From the NCBI GenBank assembly GCA_964244215.1, contig CAXTIY010000002.1, positions 1 to 32,438 on the forward strand: DNA of 32,438 nt, given 5' to 3'. Of the stretch, positions 6,577-16,721 are shown in pieces. Every line of letters starts with the position of its first letter. Position 1 is the stretch's first letter. A program made the translations under genes and the position numbers. Under the pieces are notes generated by a model that was not told the DNA's origin, did not search any database, and was given only the letters and a program-made list of their open reading frames with translations. This DNA is from an uncultured bacterium (GTDB lineage Bacteria > Vulcanimicrobiota > Vulcanimicrobiia > Vulcanimicrobiales > Vulcanimicrobiaceae).

Positions 6577-7575
6577 ATGGCCGCGAACGTTCGGGTCGGC
6601 GTGGTCGGTTTCGGCGCTATCGGGCGCCATCACGCGCGCAATCTCGCAGCCATGCCGGACGTCACGCTCGTCGGCGTCGCGGAGAACTCGCCGCTCGCGG
6701 CGGCGCAAGCCGAGTCGTTCGGGCATCGCACCTTCGAGTCGAGCCGCAAGCTCATCGCCGAGGGTCTCGATGGGGTCGTGATCTGCGTGCCGACGAGCCT
6801 GCACGAGGACGTCGCAACCGATTTCATCGACGCGGGCGTCGCGTTGCTCATCGAAAAGCCGATCGCCCATACGATGGAGGCTGCCAAGCGTTTGATGGCG
6901 CGCTGCCAGCGGGCGGGCTTACCGCTCATGGTCGGTTACGTCGAACGCTACAATCCGGCGATGACCGCCATTCGCGATTTCGTTGCGGGCGGTAATCTCG
7001 GGCGCCTCATCAGCATGTCGGCCCGCCGCGTTGGTGTTCTGCCGCCGCGTATCCGCGATGCGAGCGTCTTGATCGATATCGGCGTGCACGATATCGATAT
7101 GGCGGCCTTCATCACGGGTGCCCGCCTCAATCTGCTTTGCGCGCAGGGCGGCATGGCCGTTCTTCAGGATCGGCTCGATTTTGCAACGCTGATGCTCGAC
7201 GCGGCCGGTTGCGTGGTGTCGATCGAAGCGAATTGGGTCACGCCCGTTAAAGTGCGCGAGCTTTCCATCACGGGTACGCACGGCTATTGCCGAGTCGATT
7301 ACATCACGCAGGAGGCCTGGTTTGCGCCGGGCGTGGCGTTCGAGCGGACGGGCACGTTTGAAGGACCCGTGCGCCAGTATAAAGAAGGACCGCTGATCTC
7401 GCTACCGGTTCACAAGCGCGAACCGCTCGCGTGCGAGCTCGAAGTGTTCGTCAACGGAATTCGGGGTGGTCCCTTGCCGAATCCCGGCATCGCGCTCGCT
7501 TCGCTACGCATCGCGGAGGAAGCGACCGCGTACATCAATCGTATCCCGACGGCACTTGCCGTCGCGAGCTTGTGA
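6577..7575 (+). CDS. Gfo/Idh/MocA-family NAD-dependent sugar oxidoreductase (WbpB/GnnA-like)
   Basis: 332 aa. N-terminal Rossmann fold VRVGVVGFGAIGRHHARNL, then LLIEKPIAHT. ATG lies 2 nt after the aminotransferase stop. Confidence 0.8.
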   Translation: MAANVRVGVVGFGAIGRHHARNLAAMPDVTLVGVAENSPLAAAQAESFGHRTFESSRKLIAEGLDGVVICVPTSLHEDVATDFIDAGVALLIEKPIAHTMEAAKRLMARCQRAGLPLMVGYVERYNPAMTAIRDFVAGGNLGRLISMSARRVGVLPPRIRDASVLIDIGVHDIDMAAFITGARLNLLCAQGGMAVLQDRLDFATLMLDAAGCVVSIEANWVTPVKVRELSITGTHGYCRVDYITQEAWFAPGVAFERTGTFEGPVRQYKEGPLISLPVHKREPLACELEVFVNGIRGGPLPNPGIALASLRIAEEATAYINRIPTALAVASL

Positions 7576-8628: not shown

Positions 8629-9471
8629 CTAAGAAGATGCTGGTCGATTCATCGCCGAGGTTCCGGGCCCCGGCCCGCTCGTGAACGAGCGGAACGTCGA
8701 TTCGCGGACGAACGCGAGAATCGCGGCCCCGAGACCGACGAGCGCGACGACCGCAAAGACGGCCCAGCCGACCACGGGCAACGATTCTGCCGCCGTGATG
8801 ACGACGAGACCGACCGCCAGCGCTGCGAGCGGAGTCGGCGTGGCCGTCGGGCGCAGCATTTCGTAAAGGCGCCGGCCCAGCAGCAGTCCGAGCGCGGCGT
8901 TCCCGATCCAAAGGCCCGCGCACAGCACGGCCGCTTCGATTGGAATGAGTGGAATTCCGATAACGCTCAGCGCCAACAGCACGCAGATCGGCAGCGCGGC
9001 GACCGTCACGACCGCCCCCGTAATGCCGGAGAGCCCGGGATGCTTCTCCACGCGGTCCATTGCGATCCGCACGCGTAGCGGAAAGAGAAGGAACGCGAAT
9101 GCGACGACCACGTCCCAAGCAAGTTTCTTGAAAAAGCCGCGATCTTGCGCGAAGTTGCCGGTTGCGACCGGGCCGAACCATGGCAGCGATTCAAAATCGC
9201 CCGCCGTCGCGACCCGGCCGTCGATTTGGCAGCCGTCGTCTTGTTCGAAATGGCCGAAGAACGTATGCACGTCTCCATGGATTTGCGCGCCGTCATCGCA
9301 CGTTACCGTGCCGAAAACGACGTCGAGATTGCCATCGATCTCGTCGCCGTCGTTGAGCTCGAGATTGCTGAACCAGACGATCTTGCCTTCGTGGCTCTGC
9401 GCCGATGCAGCCGACGCCGTGAAGCCGAGGCACGTCGCGAAAGCGAAGACCAGAAGCGCGAGGCGGCGCAT
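8629..9471 (-). CDS. membrane protein with an exported beta-helix (polymer-forming/bactofilin-like repeat) domain and a polytopic C-terminal region
   Basis: The start is placed at ATG 9471-9469, which overlaps the anti-sigma TGA by 1 nt (TGATG). Signal peptide MRRLALLVFAFATCLGFTASAASA. Repeat-like GDEIDGNLDVVFGTVTCDDGAQIHGDVHTFFGHFEQDDGCQIDGRV, followed by 4-5 hydrophobic helices. Confidence 0.6.
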   Translation of the reverse strand: MRRLALLVFAFATCLGFTASAASAQSHEGKIVWFSNLELNDGDEIDGNLDVVFGTVTCDDGAQIHGDVHTFFGHFEQDDGCQIDGRVATAGDFESLPWFGPVATGNFAQDRGFFKKLAWDVVVAFAFLLFPLRVRIAMDRVEKHPGLSGITGAVVTVAALPICVLLALSVIGIPLIPIEAAVLCAGLWIGNAALGLLLGRRLYEMLRPTATPTPLAALAVGLVVITAAESLPVVGWAVFAVVALVGLGAAILAFVRESTFRSFTSGPGPGTSAMNRPASS

Positions 9472-10025
9472 CAGCAAAGCTCCGTCGCTCGCGCGCTCGC
9501 GCCGCGCCGGGAGCGGCGGAAGGCGTATAGCAGCGCGACGCACCCCGCCACCACGAGATCGGCCCCGAGCAAACCGCCCATGGCGGCCGTGACGTCGAAG
9601 GTTTCGCCACCGAAGGTGCGGCTGGTCACGTGCGAGAGCGATTGAAGGCTCGCGCCGGCATGGGTGAAGCCCTCACCGATCGTTGCAAGCATGGCTCGTG
9701 CCTGGACGCCACCGAATAAGAGGAACGCACCGATCGTGACCCAGCCGAACGCGACGTACGTGCCGAGCACGGCCAGGAGCGAGGTGCGATGGTGGCGCGG
9801 CGGCGGCAGCGAGCGCACCTCGGCCATCACCGCAAATGTGAAATTCGGAGCCGGTTCGAGCTTACGCGGCGCGAGCAGCAACGCATCGATAACGCGGTAT
9901 TCGGCGAGCAGCGCGGCACACGCGGGGCACGCCTCGGCATGGTTCTCGAAGCGCATCCGAGCGGAAGCCGTAAGCGTGCCCTCGACGTATTCGTCGAGGG
10001 AATCGTTAAAAGACGAGCAGCGCAC
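9471..10025 (-). CDS. membrane-bound zinc-finger (ZAS/zf-HC2) anti-sigma factor
   Basis: 184 aa. GTG 10025 is preceded by AGGAG with a 6-nt spacer. The H-x3-C-x2-C motif (HAEACPACAAL) is near the N-terminus, followed by two hydrophobic helices. It lies immediately downstream of the ECF sigma gene and overlaps it by 20 nt. Confidence 0.8.
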   Translation of the reverse strand: MRCSSFNDSLDEYVEGTLTASARMRFENHAEACPACAALLAEYRVIDALLLAPRKLEPAPNFTFAVMAEVRSLPPPRHHRTSLLAVLGTYVAFGWVTIGAFLLFGGVQARAMLATIGEGFTHAGASLQSLSHVTSRTFGGETFDVTAAMGGLLGADLVVAGCVALLYAFRRSRRGASARATELC

Positions 10026-10650
10026 GTGGTGCTCCTAAGGGCTTATCCGTACGCGAGAGTGCGGCGACCGCAGACTCTTCCCGGTCGCGTAATTTTTGCG
10101 CGAGGGCGAGCTTGCCGCGATGGATCAACGTCTTGACGTTGCCGAGCGAAAGCCCGAGGGTTTCTGCGATCGTTTGATATTCCATGTTGTCGTAATAGCG
10201 TAACGAGAGGACGGTGCGCGTGCGTTCCGGCAGTTCCGCGAGCGCCGCGCGCACGCCGGCCTCGGCTTCGGCACGCAAGATGCCGCCCGCAGGATCGGCG
10301 CTCGGTGACGTATCGGGAAGCGCCGTCTCGAGGCTGCGTTCTTCGCCGAGATCGACGCAGGGAGGGCGGCGCAGCGATTTGCCGAGATGCGTGCGCACGA
10401 CGTTGCGGGCGATGTGGTAGATCCAGGTGGAAAAGCGCCCGAGACTCGGATTGAACGTGCCGAGGTGGGCGTATGCCCGCATGAACGTTTCTTGCGTGAG
10501 ATCCGCTACGTCCGAGGGACCGCGCACGCTCGCGCCGATAAAATTTGTGATACCGCGTTTGTAACGGTCGACTAAGACGGCAAAGCAGTCGCTGTTGCCG
10601 CCGAGTACGAGCTGGATCAACTGCTCGTCGTCCTGCTCTGCGATCGCCAT
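10006..10650 (-). CDS. ECF-type RNA polymerase sigma factor (sigma-70 family, group 4)
   Basis: The start is moved to ATG 10650, directly preceded by GAGGAGGA (10651-10658). 214 aa. Region 2 (FAVLVDRYKRGITNFI...DVADLTQETFMRAYAHL) and region 4 (LPERTRTVLSLRYYDNMEYQTIAETLGLSLGNVKTLIHRGKLAL). Confidence 0.9.
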   Translation of the reverse strand: MAIAEQDDEQLIQLVLGGNSDCFAVLVDRYKRGITNFIGASVRGPSDVADLTQETFMRAYAHLGTFNPSLGRFSTWIYHIARNVVRTHLGKSLRRPPCVDLGEERSLETALPDTSPSADPAGGILRAEAEAGVRAALAELPERTRTVLSLRYYDNMEYQTIAETLGLSLGNVKTLIHRGKLALAQKLRDREESAVAALSRTDKPLGAPRALLVF

Positions 10651-10763
10651 TCCTCCTCGCCTCTTTCTTGTGGCTAGATTACCGGTCGGCGCGTCATAAG
10701 TTTCGCACGCGTAAGAGCGCCCAAAGACTTCCGGCACGCCGTCGGGAACGACATTGCAGTTCC

Positions 10764-12317
10764 ATGCAACTCCGAATCGATACGGGGCTCGTCGGTGAAG
10801 CGCGCGCACTCGCGCTCGCGATCTCGGGGCCTATAAATGACTTCATCGCCGCGCACTCGACCGTCTCCGTCGAGCGCGCCGTGCTGCGGTTGCTCGGCAT
10901 CGACGGCGTCGGACGCGACGATATTCCGTTGCCGAACCTCGTCGCCGAACGCCTGGGCGCCGAGCGTTTGCGCGGCGGCGCGGCGCGACCGATCGGAGCG
11001 CTCGTGGCGCAAACCGGCCGTACGGCAGACGACGTGGCAGCCGCCCTCGGCGACGGCTCGCTCGACGCGGCCGCGGGCGACGACGTTCCCGAGATTGCGG
11101 CACGGGTGGCTTTGGAGAGGACGATCGCGCGCGCGCTCGGCCGTATCGACGCACGCCGCGAGGAACGTGGACGGCTAGTCGCCGCCTACCCGCAATTACC
11201 GCCGCCGCTGCTGTACGTGATCGTGGCGAGCGGCAACATCTACGAAGACCGGACGGCCGCGATCGCGGCGGCGGAAGCGGGCGCGCAGATCATCGCGGTG
11301 ATCCGCTCGACGGGGCAATCGTTGCTCGATTTCGTGCCGTACGGCGCGACGACCGAAGGCTTCGGCGGCACATACGCGACGCAAGAAAATTTTCGCATCA
11401 TGCGCGAGGCGCTCGACGCGGTCTCGCAGCGTCTCGGCCGTTACGTAATGCTCACGAATTACGCGAGCGGCCTCTGCATGCCCGAGATCGCAACGATGGC
11501 GGCGCTCGAGCGGCTCGACATGCTGCTCAACGACTCGATGTACGGGATACTTTTTCGCGACATCAATATGAAGCGCACGTTCGTCGATCAGCACTTCTCG
11601 CGCATGCTCAACGCCCGCTCGGGCATCATCATCAATACGGGCGAAGATAATTATCTTACCACGGCCGACGCCGTCGAACAGGCGCCCGCGGTGCTCGCTT
11701 CGCAATTCATCAACGAAGCATTCGCGCATCGCGCGGGTATGCCGAACGCGCAGATCGGCCTCGGCGACGCTTACGAAATCGACCCGTCGCTCGAAGACGG
11801 TTTTCTCTACGCCATCGCGCAAGCGCAACTCGCGCGGCAAGTCTTCCCCGATGCGCCGCTTAAATATATGCCGCCGACGAAGCACATGACGGGCGACGTT
11901 TTTAAGGGACATCTCATCGACGCGATGTTCAACCTGACGTCGGTCATGACGAAGCAGACGATTCATCTTTGCGGCATGATGACGGAAGCCATTCATACGC
12001 CGTTTCTCGGCGATCGCGCGCTCGCGCTCGAAAATGCGCGTTACGTGATGTCGACGGCGCGCCATCTCGGCGACGATATCGAATTCAAGCGCGACGGCGT
12101 CGTCGAGCGCCGCGCGCAGAGCGTCTTGCGCGACGCGCACGCGTTGCTCGAGCGTGTGGCGGATCTCGGCTTGATGGCCGCGATCGATGCGAAGACGTTC
12201 GCCGACGTGAAGCGTTCGCCCGACGGCGGGCGCGGCTTCGACGGCGTGTTCGAGCGGGCGGCGGACTATTGGAACCCGTTCGCGGAAGCCCTCGCACCCG
12301 AGGCGCTCGCGCGGTGA
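10764..12317 (+). CDS. kamD: lysine 5,6-aminomutase alpha subunit (TIM-barrel subunit)
   Basis: 517 aa from ATG 10764. HSTVSVERAVLRLLGIDGV near the N-terminus, and the overall length and conservation fit KamD. Its partner, the B12-binding subunit gene, lies downstream. Confidence 0.8.
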   Translation: MQLRIDTGLVGEARALALAISGPINDFIAAHSTVSVERAVLRLLGIDGVGRDDIPLPNLVAERLGAERLRGGAARPIGALVAQTGRTADDVAAALGDGSLDAAAGDDVPEIAARVALERTIARALGRIDARREERGRLVAAYPQLPPPLLYVIVASGNIYEDRTAAIAAAEAGAQIIAVIRSTGQSLLDFVPYGATTEGFGGTYATQENFRIMREALDAVSQRLGRYVMLTNYASGLCMPEIATMAALERLDMLLNDSMYGILFRDINMKRTFVDQHFSRMLNARSGIIINTGEDNYLTTADAVEQAPAVLASQFINEAFAHRAGMPNAQIGLGDAYEIDPSLEDGFLYAIAQAQLARQVFPDAPLKYMPPTKHMTGDVFKGHLIDAMFNLTSVMTKQTIHLCGMMTEAIHTPFLGDRALALENARYVMSTARHLGDDIEFKRDGVVERRAQSVLRDAHALLERVADLGLMAAIDAKTFADVKRSPDGGRGFDGVFERAADYWNPFAEALAPEALAR

Positions 12318-12318
12318 G
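12309..12318. repeat. left copy of the 10-bp direct repeat GCGCGGTGAG at the kamD / cassette junction
   Basis: Exact 10-mer containing the kamD TGA (12315-12317) and the GTG of the next gene (12314-12316). An identical 10-mer lies at 14481-14490. Confidence 0.9.
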
Positions 12319-13495
12319 TGGGCTGGAATTGCAGAAAATACTTGAGCGGGGCGAATCACAGCGCGCTGAATTCAAGGAAAACACGAAGGCGGCATTACGC
12401 GAAGCGGTCTGTGCGCTCGCCAACGATCTTGAAGGGAGCGACGAAGTCGGGTATCTGCTGGTTGGCATAAACGACGTCGGACGTTTCTGCGGAGTCGCAA
12501 TCGACGATACCATGCTTGAGATCCTTGCGCAGATTCGCTCCGATGGGGCACTACAACCGCTGCCGAGCATTTCTGTCGAGCGGGTTGAGTTAGGCGGTGA
12601 TTCATGTGCCGTCGTGCATGTGCGCCCTTGTGATGACCCGCCGATGCGTTATCGAGGGCGCGTCTGGGTTCGTGTCGGATCAACGACGCAGATTGCAAGC
12701 CCGCAGGATGAGCGCGTCCTTGTCGAGCGGCGACGCCGTACAAACCTGCCGTTTGACCATAGAGTGGCCGAGAGTGCTACTCTTGATGACCTGGCTATCG
12801 ACTTCTTCGAGAAAACCTATCTGCCGGCGGCGTATGCTCCCGAAATCTTGCAAGCAAATGGTCGAACGATCTTCGCACAACTAGAAGCTCTGCGCTTCGC
12901 CTTCAAAGAACTTCCTACAGTTGGCGGAATTTTGGTGAGCGGGGCTGATCCTCTACGTTTCGTTCCCGGCGCATACTTGCAGTTCGTAGTCTTCGCGGGT
13001 AAAGATGTAACCAGCGGCATCGTCGATGAGAAGGTTGCATCCGGCCGCATCGACTCCATCGCTACGGCGGCGCTAGAGCTTCTTCGTCTCACGCTTGCTG
13101 TTTCTCTTCGACAAGAGGAAGGCGAGCGAGATGTTAAAGTGCCTCGCTATCCCCTTGTGGCATTAACGGAAATTACTATCAACGCATTGATGCATCGCAA
13201 CTATGATGGAACGAATGCGCCAGTGCGAGTCTATGCCTTCGCTGATAGAATCGAGATTTCAAATCCCGGCGGTCCATTCGGAACTGTCAATAAGTCAACG
13301 TTCGGCCAGCGCGGCATCACGGATTACCGCAATCCCATTCTTGCGGATGCATTAAAGACGCTCGGCTTTGCCCAACGCTTCGGATACGGTATCGAGGCGT
13401 CACGCAAGGCACTTCGGGCGAATGGCAATCCAGAACCTCGCTTTGAAGTCGAACGTGATTTCGTGAACGTAGTCATCGGAGCTGCGAATGCCTAG
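12314..13495 (+). CDS. AlbA_2 (Schlafen-like, 'divergent AAA') + HATPase_c_4 domain protein, often annotated as a RecG-like putative DNA-binding or ATP-binding protein
   Basis: GTG 12314 overlaps the kamD stop (GTGA). 393 aa. N-terminal ERGESQRAEFKE...GYLLVGINDVG...AVVHVRP...PMRYRGRVWVRVGSTT has the AlbA_2 pattern. C-terminal EITINALMHRNYDGTNAPVRVYAFADRIEISNPGGPFG...DYRNPILADALKTLGFAQRFGYGI has the HATPase_c_4 pattern. The gene has lower GC than its flanks. Confidence 0.7.
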   Translation: MSGLELQKILERGESQRAEFKENTKAALREAVCALANDLEGSDEVGYLLVGINDVGRFCGVAIDDTMLEILAQIRSDGALQPLPSISVERVELGGDSCAVVHVRPCDDPPMRYRGRVWVRVGSTTQIASPQDERVLVERRRRTNLPFDHRVAESATLDDLAIDFFEKTYLPAAYAPEILQANGRTIFAQLEALRFAFKELPTVGGILVSGADPLRFVPGAYLQFVVFAGKDVTSGIVDEKVASGRIDSIATAALELLRLTLAVSLRQEEGERDVKVPRYPLVALTEITINALMHRNYDGTNAPVRVYAFADRIEISNPGGPFGTVNKSTFGQRGITDYRNPILADALKTLGFAQRFGYGIEASRKALRANGNPEPRFEVERDFVNVVIGAANA

Positions 13496-14489
13496 CATCG
13501 CATTCTTCAACAACAAGGGTGGCGTCGGTAAAACGACCTTAGTTTACCACTTGGCTGCCATGTTTTCCGATTTGGGCGTTCGCGTTCTGGCTGTCGATTT
13601 GGACCCACAAGCCAACCTGAGCGCTATGTGTCTTCCCGAAGAAGATTTCCTAAAAATGTGGCCGGATGGGCCACACCCCGATACGCTCTTTGGTGCCGTC
13701 GCACCGATTATGGAGGGCACGGGTGATATAGCGCCGGTTTTCATTAGCGAGATAGATCCCGCTTTTGGATTGCTCGCGGGAGACTTGAGTCTTAGTTCCT
13801 TCGAGGGCGATCTCGCGCAGGCTTGGCCGAACGTGCTCGATAGACGCATCAACGCTGTTAGGCAAACAACGGCTTTCGCCCGGATTATCGAGGCGGCACG
13901 CGCCGAGTGGTCTGCTGACCTCGTACTTATTGATGTTGGTCCAAATCTCGGAGCGTTGAACCGAGCCGCTCTTTTATCAGCTACGCATGTTATAACGCCG
14001 CTAGCACCGGATCTTTTTTCGCTTCAAGGTCTGCGCAATCTTGGTCCCGCGCTCTCGTCTTGGCGTGAAGAGTGGAAAGAACGCTACGATCGTAATCTCA
14101 ACCGCGGCGTGTCCTTGCCGGTCGGAGCGATGCAACCACTCGGCTATATAGTTCTTCAACACGCCATGCGTCTCGATCGACCGGTTCAAGCTTACGGTCG
14201 TTGGATGGAGCAAATTCCAGGCGCTTTTCAACATGAAATCATGGATCGGGCAGGCGTTTCGCCGCTTCATGGACCGCTTGCTTTAGCGACCCTGAAAAAT
14301 TATCGTAGTTTGATGCCCCTCGCTATGGAAGCTCGCAAGCCAATGTTTGCATTACGTCCTGCAGATGGAGCGCTCGGGGCGCAACAACAGGCCGTCAGTC
14401 GCTGTTACGAAGATTTTCGAACCCTTGCAATGAACATCGCAGATCGGTTGGAGATCGATGTTCCTGTAGCGCATGGCGTTGCGCGGTGA
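13488..14489 (+). CDS. ParA/MinD-family P-loop ATPase with an extended C-terminal region
   Basis: 333 aa. Deviant Walker A IAFFNNKGGVGKTTLVYHLA, then VLAVDLDPQANLS, and Walker B-like DLVLIDVGPNLG. ATG 13488 overlaps the upstream stop by 8 nt. The TGA overlaps the kamE GTG. GC is lower than in the flanks. Confidence 0.8.
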   Translation: MPSIAFFNNKGGVGKTTLVYHLAAMFSDLGVRVLAVDLDPQANLSAMCLPEEDFLKMWPDGPHPDTLFGAVAPIMEGTGDIAPVFISEIDPAFGLLAGDLSLSSFEGDLAQAWPNVLDRRINAVRQTTAFARIIEAARAEWSADLVLIDVGPNLGALNRAALLSATHVITPLAPDLFSLQGLRNLGPALSSWREEWKERYDRNLNRGVSLPVGAMQPLGYIVLQHAMRLDRPVQAYGRWMEQIPGAFQHEIMDRAGVSPLHGPLALATLKNYRSLMPLAMEARKPMFALRPADGALGAQQQAVSRCYEDFRTLAMNIADRLEIDVPVAHGVAR

Positions 14490-14490
14490 G
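14481..14490. repeat. right copy of the 10-bp direct repeat GCGCGGTGAG at the cassette / kamE junction
   Basis: Exact 10-mer containing the ParA-like TGA (14487-14489) and the kamE GTG (14486-14488). Confidence 0.9.
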
Positions 14491-15223
14491 CGGACTCGTT
14501 AAGCCCTACGGCGATACGCGCGACGACGGCAAGGTGCAACTCTCGTTCACGCTGCCGCTCGAATGGAGCGAAGCGGCCGACGAAGCGGCGCGGCAGCTCG
14601 TTGCGAAGATGGGTTTTTCGGAAGTCGCGGTCGCCGAAGGTCGGCCGATCGCGACCGGGTTTTCGTTTTTTATCGTGTACGCGAGTACGCCCGTCGCGAT
14701 CGACGCGAGCGCGATCGTCGCGCCGTCGGCGAAATCGCACGCGATGTCGATGGACGAAATCGACGAGTTCGTGCGCGAGCGGCTCGGCCGTAAGATACGC
14801 ATCGCGGGCGCGTGCATCGGCACCGACGCCCACACGGTCGGCATCGATGCGATCCTCAATATGAAAGGGTATAAGGGCGATTACGGGCTCGAGCGTTATA
14901 AAGAATTCGTCACGTTCAATCTCGGCAGTCAAGTTTCGGTCGAGGCGCTCGTCGCGTTCGCCAAAAGCGAGCGAATAGATGCGTTGCTCGCATCGCAGGT
15001 CGTTACGCAGAAGGGTAGCGACGTTGCGAATTTTACCGCGCTTTCCGAATTACTCGAAGCCGAAGGTATGCGCGACGAAGTGCTGCTAATCGCCGGAGGG
15101 CCGCGCATGACGAACCTGCTCGCGACGGAGCTCGGTTACGACGCGGGCTTCGGGCGCGGCACCGTGCCGAGCGACGTCGCCGCGTTCGTCGCGCAACGCA
15201 TGGCCGAGCGCGTTACGGTTTAA
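14486..15223 (+). CDS. kamE: lysine 5,6-aminomutase beta subunit (cobalamin- and PLP-binding)
   Basis: 245 aa. KPYGDTRDDGKVQLSFTLPL N-terminus, base-off B12 motif GTDAHTVGID (DxHxxG), and the PLP-lysine region LNMKGYKGDYGLERY. Confidence 0.85.
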   Translation: MSGLVKPYGDTRDDGKVQLSFTLPLEWSEAADEAARQLVAKMGFSEVAVAEGRPIATGFSFFIVYASTPVAIDASAIVAPSAKSHAMSMDEIDEFVRERLGRKIRIAGACIGTDAHTVGIDAILNMKGYKGDYGLERYKEFVTFNLGSQVSVEALVAFAKSERIDALLASQVVTQKGSDVANFTALSELLEAEGMRDEVLLIAGGPRMTNLLATELGYDAGFGRGTVPSDVAAFVAQRMAERVTV

Positions 15224-15227
15224 ACGT

Positions 15228-16721
15228 TTGCCGCGTAAGGCGTCGTTGCGTGCGGCTTTCGTGCGCTGTGCGTTTGTCGCGCTCTGCATGCTCGCGCCCG
15301 CGTCTTCGGCGCTCGGCGCGGCGCCCGCGACGGCCGTTCGCCCGTCGGATGCGGGCGATGCCTGGAGCTCGAGCGAGGTTGCGACGTTGCGTCGCGATCT
15401 CGATGCGATGCTCGCGAGCGATCCGGCGGTGCGCGGCGCGCACGTCGGCGTGGCCGCACTGATTACGAAGTCGGGAGCGCCGCTCTACGAACATAATGCG
15501 ACCGACGAATTTCAACCGGCGAGTACGCTCAAGCTGCTCGTGGGAAGCGTCGCGCTCGATGATCTCGGGACCGCCTACCGATTTCGAACAGTGCTCGAGC
15601 AGAGCGGAGATCGCCTCATCTTGCGGCCGGGTGGCGACCCGCTTTTGCGTTCGAGCGATCTCGAAGCGGCAGCGGATGCGGTGCTCGCCGCGGGAATGTT
15701 GCGCGTGGGCGCAGTTGCCGTCGATGCGTCGCATTTCGAGGGACCGCCCTATCCGAACGGCTGGGTATGGGACGACTTTTCATACGATTACGCCGCACGC
15801 GTGTCGGCCGCGGCGGTTAACGAAAACGTCACGACCTATTCCGCGTTGCCCGGTGCGAGAATCGGCGATCCGATTCGCCTTGCTGCGGGGCGAGCGTTCC
15901 TCGAGCCGCAGACTGCGTGCCCGGGTCTCGTCAATCGCGCCGTTACGGCGCCTGCGAGCGAAGCGTCCAGGCTCGATACGTTGACGCTTGCGCCCGATTG
16001 TACGGCGATCACCGGTCTTTTGCCCGCGAACTCGTCGTCCGCGTTCGTCGACGTTGCGGTCGGCGATCCGGTCGAAAATTTGCGGAGCGTTTTTACAGAT
16101 CGGCTAATCGGCCCGACGCATCGCTTCGCTATCGGTGAAGACGGGTCGCAGTCGAAGCCGGCCGTAGCCGGCCGGACCATCTGGCAACACGATTCGGATC
16201 CACTCGGCGCGTGGCTCGGGCCGTCGTTTTGGATTCCCTCGGATAACTTCGTTGCGGAGCAGCTTTTGTGCGAAGTCGGTTTCGCAGATCATGGCGGAGC
16301 GGGCTCGACGGAGCGCGGTCTGGACGCCGAACGAACGTGGTTACGTGCGAACGGCATCGATCCGGCGACAACGACGCTCGCCGACGGAAGTGGCCTCTCG
16401 CAATACGATCGGATAACACCACGCGACCTCGTCGCGATTCTGCAACACGACTGGATCGGCCAGAATCGCAATCTCGTTCTCGATTCGCTACCGATCGGGG
16501 GCGTGCGCGGCACGATCGAAGGTATAGCGGGTACGGCCGCCGCGGGACGCGTGTTTGCGAAGACGGGGAGCATGTCGCACGTCCGTGGGCTCGCGGGCTA
16601 TCTTTCGACGCTACGCCATGGCGCCGTGACGTTCGCCTTTAGCGTCGACGATTGGAACGGCGATTACGGGCAGCTAGCGGCGTTGCGCGCGAGAGTGCTC
16701 GCTCGGCTTATCTCGGATTGA
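15228..16721 (+). CDS. dacB: D-alanyl-D-alanine carboxypeptidase/endopeptidase (PBP4, peptidase S13)
   Basis: 497 aa with an alanine-rich signal peptide. SxxK (PASTLKLL) and KTG (FAKTGSMSHVRGLAGYL) motifs. TTG start is assumed. Confidence 0.8.
   Translation: MPRKASLRAAFVRCAFVALCMLAPASSALGAAPATAVRPSDAGDAWSSSEVATLRRDLDAMLASDPAVRGAHVGVAALITKSGAPLYEHNATDEFQPASTLKLLVGSVALDDLGTAYRFRTVLEQSGDRLILRPGGDPLLRSSDLEAAADAVLAAGMLRVGAVAVDASHFEGPPYPNGWVWDDFSYDYAARVSAAAVNENVTTYSALPGARIGDPIRLAAGRAFLEPQTACPGLVNRAVTAPASEASRLDTLTLAPDCTAITGLLPANSSSAFVDVAVGDPVENLRSVFTDRLIGPTHRFAIGEDGSQSKPAVAGRTIWQHDSDPLGAWLGPSFWIPSDNFVAEQLLCEVGFADHGGAGSTERGLDAERTWLRANGIDPATTTLADGSGLSQYDRITPRDLVAILQHDWIGQNRNLVLDSLPIGGVRGTIEGIAGTAAAGRVFAKTGSMSHVRGLAGYLSTLRHGAVTFAFSVDDWNGDYGQLAALRARVLARLISD

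Follow-up and report, generated by a model that had tools for sequence, protein, structure and literature searches.

A Schlafen-GHKL protein and a long ParA-like ATPase encoded as a conserved gene pair between kamD and kamE: a candidate conflict module

The 32,438-nucleotide stretch of DNA analysed here (the window; contig CAXTIY010000002.1 of GenBank assembly GCA_964244215.1, from an uncultured bacterium of the Vulcanimicrobiaceae that we refer to below as an Eremiobacterota genome) carries a two-gene cassette between kamD and kamE, the genes for the subunits of lysine 5,6-aminomutase. The first open reading frame of the cassette (ORF1) encodes a protein with a Schlafen-type and a GHKL-type domain, the second (ORF2) a long ParA/Soj-type ATPase. 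From position 10668 to 15223, kamD, ORF1, ORF2 and kamE follow each other on the plus strand as four closely packed genes (Table 1), such that ORF1 starts from a GTG codon overlapping the kamD stop codon and the ORF2 stop codon in turn overlaps the kamE start (GTGA in both cases). A preliminary description of this DNA had recognized the flanks as B12 aminomutase genes and the cassette as foreign in composition, and both points are borne out by the NCBIfam scores of KamD and KamE and by a GC content of 0.544 in the cassette compared to 0.643 and 0.624 in the left and right flank, respectively. The 8-nt overlap of ORF1 and ORF2 had been taken to imply stoichiometric co-expression; it is indeed present and implies translational coupling, not necessarily stoichiometry. 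Inside the cassette we found no promoter- or terminator-like signals above shuffled expectation.

Two coupled genes and their products

The domain content assigned to ORF1 in the preliminary description was confirmed. Residues 14-128 match SLFN_AlbA_2 (PF04326; Pfam E 1.2e-15, 58.5 bits with a cutoff of 25.3) and residues 302-388 match HATPase_c_4 (PF13749; Pfam E 7.9e-18, 64.7 bits with a cutoff of 26), with the N-box and the NPGG motif of the latter in place. These are the only Pfam matches of ORF1, and a HEPN domain was not found. In a 30-sequence alignment of the ORF1 family (A4) the residues E14, E19 and K21 of the Schlafen motif are invariant, as are N290, H294, R295, NPGG and FGYG on the GHKL side, whereas E286 is not. 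A larger alignment of 80 sequences has E14 and E19 in every aligned sequence and N290, H294 and R295 in 80/80. Throughout the clade, ORF1 homologs measure 392-400 amino acids (aa) and lack a C-terminal winged helix-turn-helix (wHTH) domain. The AlphaFold2 (AF2) model of ORF1 (predicted local distance difference test, pLDDT, 88.7) has the uncharacterised structure 3lmm (DIP2311) as its best Foldseek match, followed by the N-domains of SLFN11 (7fex, 7zel), SLFN13 (5yd0), SLFN14 and SLFN12 and the SAMD9 tRNase (E ~2e-4 to 3e-3), and histidine-kinase CA domains are also among the matches. In sequence and predicted fold, ORF1 has the defining features of a prokaryotic Schlafen (pSlfn) and of the Schlatpase supradomain, and its Ex4ExK motif, its GHKL N-box and the Schlafen and histidine-kinase CA folds of the model make it look catalytically competent. 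An ExxxxExT subclade among the ORF1 homologs includes L009, L024, L025, L033, L034, L037, L039, L044, L046, L050 and others.

ORF2 has the deviant Walker A motif and the extra C-terminal residues attributed to it at first reading. Its Pfam matches are AAA_31 (E 1.6e-27), which covers residues 3-195 only, and CbiA (E 3.3e-14), and the remainder of the protein is a conserved extension with invariant motifs of its own, e.g. Y272-R-S-L-x-P-L-A..A-R-K284-P-M-F287 and D293-G-A-x-G297. K10 and K15 are each conserved in 81/84 sequences, D37 and D39 of Walker A' and D149 of Walker B are invariant in the same 84-sequence alignment, and the mean column identity of the family alignment A1 reaches 71% across phyla. 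With near-invariant Walker A lysines and these aspartates, ORF2, too, looks catalytically competent. The extension is folded in the AF2 model (pLDDT 86.4), and 3pg5 is the top match over the full length of ORF2, extension included, both by profile (E 2.7e-40) and in the structure search, ahead of Soj, ParA and McdA. The NCBIfam partition models, by contrast, score far below their cutoffs (RepA 78.5 vs 348.45, ParA_partition 61.2 vs 180, SopA 17.8 vs 725), so that ORF2 has the ParA fold and motifs, yet fails the partition-family tests. All Pfam matches of ORF2 are of ParA/MinD/CbiA type, and none is to MeaB or G3E. The PDB entries 3pg5 (DIP2308) and 3lmm (DIP2311) are both from Corynebacterium diphtheriae, both annotated as uncharacterised and three locus tags apart, and a distant form of the ORF1/ORF2 pairing may be present at DIP2308-DIP2311 of this species.

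Table 1. Features of the kamD-kamE region (positions in the window)
Feature	Positions	Strand	Evidence and remarks
kamD (lysine 5,6-aminomutase alpha)	10668-12317	+	Pfam 773.7 bits, NCBIfam 774 bits; host gene 5' of the insertion, context
Left junction repeat copy GCGCGGTGAGTGGGCT (kamD stop/ORF1 start, GTGA overlap)	12309-12324	+	Repeat family D9
ORF1, 393 aa, SLFN_AlbA_2 + HATPase_c_4 ("Schlatpase" architecture), no C-terminal wHTH	12314-13495	+	Pfam, A4 alignment, AF2, Foldseek
Schlafen catalytic motif E14-SQRA-E19-F-K21 (Ex4ExK) in ORF1	12353-12376	+	Read from the sequence
GHKL N-box E286-ITI-N290-ALM-H294-R295 in ORF1	13169-13198	+	Followed by NPGG (317-320) and FGYG (356-359)
ORF1/ORF2 overlap, 8 nt, ATGCCTAG	13488-13495	+	Sequence
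ORF2, 333 aa, long ParA/Soj-type ATPase with conserved C-terminal extension	13488-14489	+	Pfam AAA_31 + CbiA, A1 alignment, AF2
Deviant Walker A N8-N-K10-G-G-V-G-K15-T16 (NNKGGVGKT) in ORF2	13509-13535	+	Sequence
C-terminal extension of ORF2 (~residues 196-333)	14073-14486	+	Alignment, AF2, profile alignment with 3pg5
Right junction repeat copy GCGCGGTGAGCGGACT (ORF2 stop/kamE start, GTGA overlap)	14481-14496	+	Repeat family D9
kamE (lysine 5,6-aminomutase beta, B12-binding)	14486-15223	+	NCBIfam 338.6 bits; host gene 3' of the insertion, context

Conservation, spread and genomic contexts of the pair

Searches with the ParA family returned more than 8000 matches from many phyla, at roughly 57-60% identity, and confirmed loci of this family occur in at least 591 species genomes (one genome per species was scanned) from more than 20 phyla. 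Neighbourhood counts rest on 80 retained loci. The pairing first noticed in this one window recurs in 79 of them, where an ORF1 homolog (36-48% identity over its full length) immediately precedes the ParA gene in the same orientation; in 52/74 loci the two genes overlap by 4 nt. The distance matrices of ORF1 and ORF2 correlate (Mantel r = 0.57, p = 0.001) and their trees are broadly congruent, with a mean identity of 64% for ParA vs 49% for ORF1. The pair has a lower GC content than its flanks in 44/50 loci (mean -3.9 points, p = 5e-9). It is thus a real conserved module that behaves as a horizontally acquired accessory unit. In a library of 50%-identity representatives, in which 792 clusters match the ParA profile at E <= 1e-30, the 731-aa protein P0255 unites SLFN_AlbA_2, HATPase_c_4 and AAA_31 within a single chain, and in P0292 a RES toxin domain is joined to a long ParA relative of ORF2 whose Walker A is degenerate. 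An apparent second fusion, P0342, resembles a frameshifted call and was discounted.

The sole locus among the 80 with a ParA gene and no ORF1 homolog is from Symploca (L066:4619-9008), where a 651-aa protein encoded ~1.3 kb upstream of the ParA gene appears, by eye from the translation, to have a caspase-like N-terminus, a HATPase_c_4-like segment and pentapeptide repeats. Salmonella phage ST160 (L167; NC_014900: 11482-13035) encodes a distant long ParA-like protein (27% identity) along with a DUF3024 protein, and in the P22-like phages ST160 and SE1 these two genes lie directly 3' of the c2 repressor gene. The slot after the repressor gene of P22-like phages is usually occupied by exclusion genes expressed in the lysogen.

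Mobile replicons hardly carry the pair. Among 72,556 plasmid records there were only 6 distant matches (<=35% identity), and the viral contigs of IMG/VR held only 2 true pairs, which led us to reject a phage origin. These counts also bear on the possibility that the pair is a partition or positioning system, in which ORF2 would be a true ParA-type ATPase and ORF1 a DNA-binding adaptor, in the role of ParB or McdB, that together move a chromosome region, a mobile element or another cargo. The fold of ORF2, which after 3pg5 is nearest to Soj, ParA and McdA, and its intact Walker motifs fit such a function, and distant relatives in IMG/VR contigs (<=38% identity) have a ParA-like gene followed by a ~290-aa gene, the layout expected of partition operons. 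On the other hand, ORF2 scores far below the partition cutoffs as described above, its partner has an invariant nuclease motif rather than a ParB/CTPase or ribbon-helix-helix fold, the genes occur in single copy on chromosomes, inside metabolic and defence operons, and both the adaptor-first gene order and the patchy distribution are atypical. We consider this explanation very unlikely in general, and for plasmid partition we reject it on the basis of the NCBIfam scores and the near absence from plasmids.

The preliminary description had proposed to look for enrichment in defence islands. In 14/79 loci (~18%) methylation-based defence operons enclose the pair on the same strand, often with overlapping stops and starts; most loci lie outside recognisable defence islands. 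The nested arrangements are HmaA-[pair]-HmaB (HmaA 1680 bits, HmaB 1517 bits), BrxC-[pair]-PglX (1396 and 1339 bits) and DUF1156 methylase-[pair]-PLD helicase. This nesting in Hma and BREX operons fits the finding that BREX and BREX-related (BR) loci frequently have Schlafen-histidine kinase (HK) proteins as auxiliary effectors (PMC12839542). The cassette of the window itself is not part of an Hma or BREX operon, and the ten other window ORFs scanned, with no defence gene detected in this set, encode envelope, polysaccharide and metabolic products. Eremiobacterota copies of the pair also adjoin RES/Xre, ParE and HipA genes and an IstB fragment. In PADLOC-DB v2.0.0 ORF1 matches only the models of Schlafen-bearing proteins associated with prokaryotic Argonautes (pAgo; Aga models) and a pAgo model, and ORF2 matches only the P-loop of PDC-M28B. 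The preliminary description had recognised no named system in the pairing, and we found none either: there was no PADLOC system match, and among the papers that could be searched none combines Schlafen, a ParA-like protein and defence or describes the pair.

Database names such as "transcriptional regulator" and "putative DNA binding domain-containing protein" would make the two genes a transcription regulator pair, and, besides these source annotations, many AlbA_2-HATPase_c_4 proteins do end in a wHTH domain (bioRxiv 10.64898/2026.05.29.728809; PMC12839542). ORF1 and its whole clade, by contrast, have no HTH, the catalytic residues are invariant, and the heterogeneous neighbours include no conserved target operon, all of which makes a regulator pair very unlikely.

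The kamD-kamE junction and the B12 question

The closest relatives of the window pair are all from Eremiobacterota, and their ParA and ORF1 sequences form one clade. Within this phylum the pair lies between kamD and kamE at L001, L002, L064, L087, L248, L250, L251, L253 and L255 and just 3' of kamE at L003. When KamE was used as the query, 35 related Eremiobacterota kamDE loci were recovered, and in 30 of them kamD abuts kamE, mostly with a stop/start overlap. The remaining five junctions hold the pair (L087), a 309-nt gap (L118) or unrelated cargo, namely a small toxin-antitoxin (TA)-like pair with a minus-strand S8/S53-like peptidase gene (L109), a 321-aa ORF (L115) and a 96-aa DUF3303-like ORF (L091). 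L255 has the ParA gene and a truncated ORF1 together with three minus-strand polysaccharide genes. On the basis of empty sites in most genomes and varied cargo in others, we regard the kamD-kamE junction as a variable hotspot. Divergence of ParA and ORF1 does not track that of KamDE (L087: KamE 86%, ParA 58%; L003: KamE 78%, ParA 66%), which suggests exchange of the pair within the phylum.

At both junctions of the cassette in the window there is a 16-nt imperfect direct repeat. The C-terminal codons of ORF2 (..AR*) copy those of KamD (..AR*), and the N-terminal VSGL of ORF1 copies the VSGL of KamE. Aligned in register on the stop codons, the two junctions are identical at 14/21 positions in the window, at L064 and at L003 (null P(>=14) = 0.0024 each), and no such in-register repeat was seen at L087, L250 or L253. 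The Hma locus L023 has two copies of a 97-nt segment from the 5' end of hmaB, one on each side of the pair (6635-6731 and 8984-9080). No recombinase gene travels with the pair, and one candidate route of insertion is that an excised copy recombined at short homology. A general target-site duplication or att site was rejected: when both pair boundaries were compared, 3% of 69 loci from other phyla reached p <= 0.05.

Residence in an aminomutase operon raises the question of whether the pair serves the enzyme. As its second hypothesis the preliminary description had considered a chaperone for cofactor loading or reactivation of the B12 aminomutase, by analogy with MeaB; GlmL/MutL, encoded between the glutamate mutase subunit genes, can be added as a second comparison. 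Such a role in this lineage would fit the ten Eremiobacterota loci besides the window in which the pair lies between or just 3' of kamDE, the likely co-transcription with kamDE (given that there is no internal promoter or terminator signal) and a solo ORF1 homolog between the subunit genes of a methylmalonyl-CoA mutase (MCM)-like enzyme. Nevertheless, we find it extremely improbable and reject it: most related kamDE loci have no insert and the same junction holds unrelated cargo elsewhere, kamDE is absent from all 75 loci of phyla other than Eremiobacterota, and copies of the Eremiobacterota clade also occur away from B12 genes, for example at L254 and L256, which are TA-rich regions with no B12 gene. 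Moreover, ORF2 is of ParA/MinD type with no G3E or MeaB match, the cassette GC content is foreign, and such a function would leave the invariant RNase motif without a use. The occurrence of MCM/B12 genes close to the pair at L050 is about what would be expected by chance. The solo homolog mentioned above is from a Baltobacteraceae metagenome-assembled genome (L252; 3156-6919), shares 55% identity with ORF1, has all motifs intact and no ParA gene, and sits between the genes for the large (PF01642) and the B12-binding small (PF02310) subunit. It represents a second split B12 enzyme operon with a similar insertion and is the oddity that remains for the B12 question.

As to the surroundings of kamDE, a divergent trio encoding an extracytoplasmic function (ECF) sigma factor, a zf-HC2 anti-sigma factor and a DUF8173 protein (8629-10809 of the window, minus strand) is always found 5' of kamDE in this lineage, and a Peptidase_S13 (D-Ala-D-Ala carboxypeptidase) gene (15228-16721, plus strand) always 3'. 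The wider neighbourhood consists of envelope and polysaccharide genes (MurJ, DegT, epimerases), and no further lysine-fermentation gene was found among the window ORFs scanned; the aminomutase may have a non-fermentative role.

A candidate conflict module and its relation to known systems

We lean, with modest confidence, towards reading the cassette as a two-gene conflict module, of the defence or abortive-infection type, that is self-contained and has spread horizontally. The first hypothesis of the preliminary description (defence, abortive infection or addiction) is to this extent upheld as the best fit to the catalytic motif, the nesting in Hma and BREX operons and the RES-fused ParA relatives, and its functional part is what we infer. 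ORF1 would be the effector, a prokaryotic Schlafen RNase and probably a tRNase, whose GHKL domain, by analogy with SLFN-pAgo, would govern the oligomerisation into an active nuclease. ORF2 would be an ATPase of ParA/Soj descent, no longer in a partition context, that has become the obligate partner of ORF1. Most likely it would serve as a sensor or switch, dependent on nucleotide and possibly bound to DNA, that either holds the RNase off or licenses it upon a trigger, and the resulting phenotype would be phage defence. Translationally coupled and co-evolving, the two genes would have landed as a module in the recombination-permissive kamD-kamE hotspot of this Eremiobacterota genome, where the cassette would now be expressed within the aminomutase operon with no role in the enzyme.

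Solo and decayed copies bear on the direction of this control. If the pair were a strict TA or addiction dyad, the RNase of ORF1 would be constitutively toxic and the ParA-like ATPase would counteract it as an antitoxin, through a nucleotide-dependent conformational change or through phosphorylation, and the pair would persist by post-segregational killing, not by defence. The same logic was proposed by Anantharaman et al. (2013) for HEPN (MAE_18760) proteins encoded with ParA/Soj (PMC3710099). The tight coupling of ORF1 and ORF2 and the presence of some copies in TA-rich regions agree with it, and a decayed ORF1 stands beside an intact ORF2 at L255, L082, L003 and L014, a trace that a TA history would also leave (as at L255 and L082). 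Conversely, the solo ORF1 genes at L252 and L254 retain all catalytic motifs with no ParA gene, which would be lethal if ParA were the obligatory antitoxin; these intact solo genes argue against ORF2 in that role and favour a sensor or licensing role. ParA is also the better conserved of the two proteins, contrary to typical antitoxins, both proteins are much bigger than typical type II TA components, and the pair is almost absent from plasmids. We therefore judge a strict TA dyad to be unlikely, albeit the strongest of the competing explanations.

Several observations weigh against the conflict-module interpretation. First, the predicted active sites vary: of the 68 sequences aligned at ORF1 position 21, 50 have K and 18 have T, and the GHKL general-base position 286 is Q in 51/80 and E in 29/80, the latter including the clade of the window. 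Second, in ~80% of loci no defence gene could be recognised right next to the pair, and the immediate neighbours are heterogeneous (gyrA, uvrA, kdpA, catalase, aminoacyl-tRNA synthetase genes and mutS). Third, no PADLOC-DB v2.0.0 model covers both proteins as one system. Fourth, P0255 is the sole clean fusion, is one cluster representative and could be a frameshift artefact. Finally, Enterobacterales Schlafen-HisKinase genes gave no protection against a phage panel in the sole published test (PMC13056530).

More tentatively, and as a possibility to which we assign less than even confidence, the long ParA-like family as a whole (3pg5/DIP2308 type) could be an unrecognised conflict sensor or switch with interchangeable effectors: Schlafen-GHKL as a separate or a fused protein (P0255), the RES NADase (P0292), HEPN RNases according to the 2013 prediction and possibly the DUF3024 partner next to the P22-like repressor gene. 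Conflict systems typically exchange effectors on one ATPase scaffold in this way, here Schlafen-GHKL, RES and, by the prediction of PMC3710099, HEPN. In that case ParA-type ATPases, known classically as motors of DNA segregation, would join the immune or conflict switches.

It was not until 2025-2026 that bacterial Schlafens, relatives of human SLFN11, were shown to act against viruses as effectors that cut tRNA. These pSlfn are controlled by fused sensor domains, and the histidine-kinase-type fusion is their commonest architecture (34%; Perez Taboada et al., Nat Microbiol 2026, PMC13056530). ORF1 shares with this class the SLFN_AlbA_2 domain with the Ex4(E/D)xK motif defined in that study, the GHKL fusion and a partial association with defence loci. 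By contrast, pSlfn are described as single-gene sensor-effector fusions, whereas the ORF1 clade has an obligate, co-evolving ParA-like gene that PMC13056530 does not mention. The HisKinase-type class is without a demonstrated function, as the genes tested in that study gave no protection. If the tentative reading of the long ParA-like family is correct, a large clade of HisKinase-type bacterial Schlafens would be a two-component system needing a ParA-like partner, and this dependence would explain the lack of defence when such genes were tested alone. A phylum-spanning Schlafen-GHKL clade tied to a ParA-derived ATPase by coupling, co-evolution and, once, fusion provides a testable hypothesis for how the class is controlled.

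In SLFN-pAgo, binding of ATP to the GHKL domain drives a tetramerisation by which the active Schlafen nuclease is assembled (bioRxiv 10.64898/2026.05.29.728809). ORF1 matches the Schlatpase supradomain (SLFN plus PF13749 GHKL) of, for example, RzAgo in both Pfam domains and in their order, and its E286 and N290 correspond to the RzAgo N-box residues E314 and N318. The ATP-driven oligomerisation into an active nuclease is known for RzAgo only, and the absence of an Argonaute core from ORF1 means that guide or target sensing cannot be the trigger. Stand-alone Schlatpases are described in that preprint with no conserved partner named, whereas the partner of ORF1 is a ParA-like ATPase. Schlafen-HK(-wHTH) proteins are common auxiliary or backup effectors in BREX and BREX-related (Hma/type-1 BR) loci (Nucleic Acids Res 2026, PMC12839542), and the same-strand nesting of the pair in such operons is a shared trait. 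The ORF1 clade differs from these effectors in that it has no wHTH and an extra ParA-like gene, while the BREX survey mentions no ParA-, MinD- or Soj-type partner (PMC12839542), and in that ~80% of copies, including that of the window, lie outside BREX and Hma loci. A defence-type module inside a metabolic operon, at a recurrent hotspot, also bears on how such modules spread without a recombinase of their own.

On the ATPase side, ORF2 shares the deviant Walker A fold with ParA, Soj and McdA, but it has no ParB or centromere partner, is not found on plasmids and falls below the partition cutoffs, with a Schlafen-GHKL gene upstream instead; only 3pg5 (DIP2308, of unknown function) shares its whole length including the C-terminal extension. 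The nearest precedent for the pair is the HEPN (MAE_18760) + ParA/Soj dyads predicted in 2013 as toxin-antitoxin systems (Anantharaman et al., Biol Direct 2013, PMC3710099), in which some MAE_18760 proteins are fused to a Schlafen domain. Both are conserved two-gene units of a predicted RNase and a ParA/Soj-type SIMIBI ATPase, with the same logic of an ATPase regulating an RNase. They differ in that ORF1 has no HEPN domain and its predicted RNase is a Schlafen with a GHKL ATPase of its own, and the ATPases are likened at the level of the ParA/Soj class.

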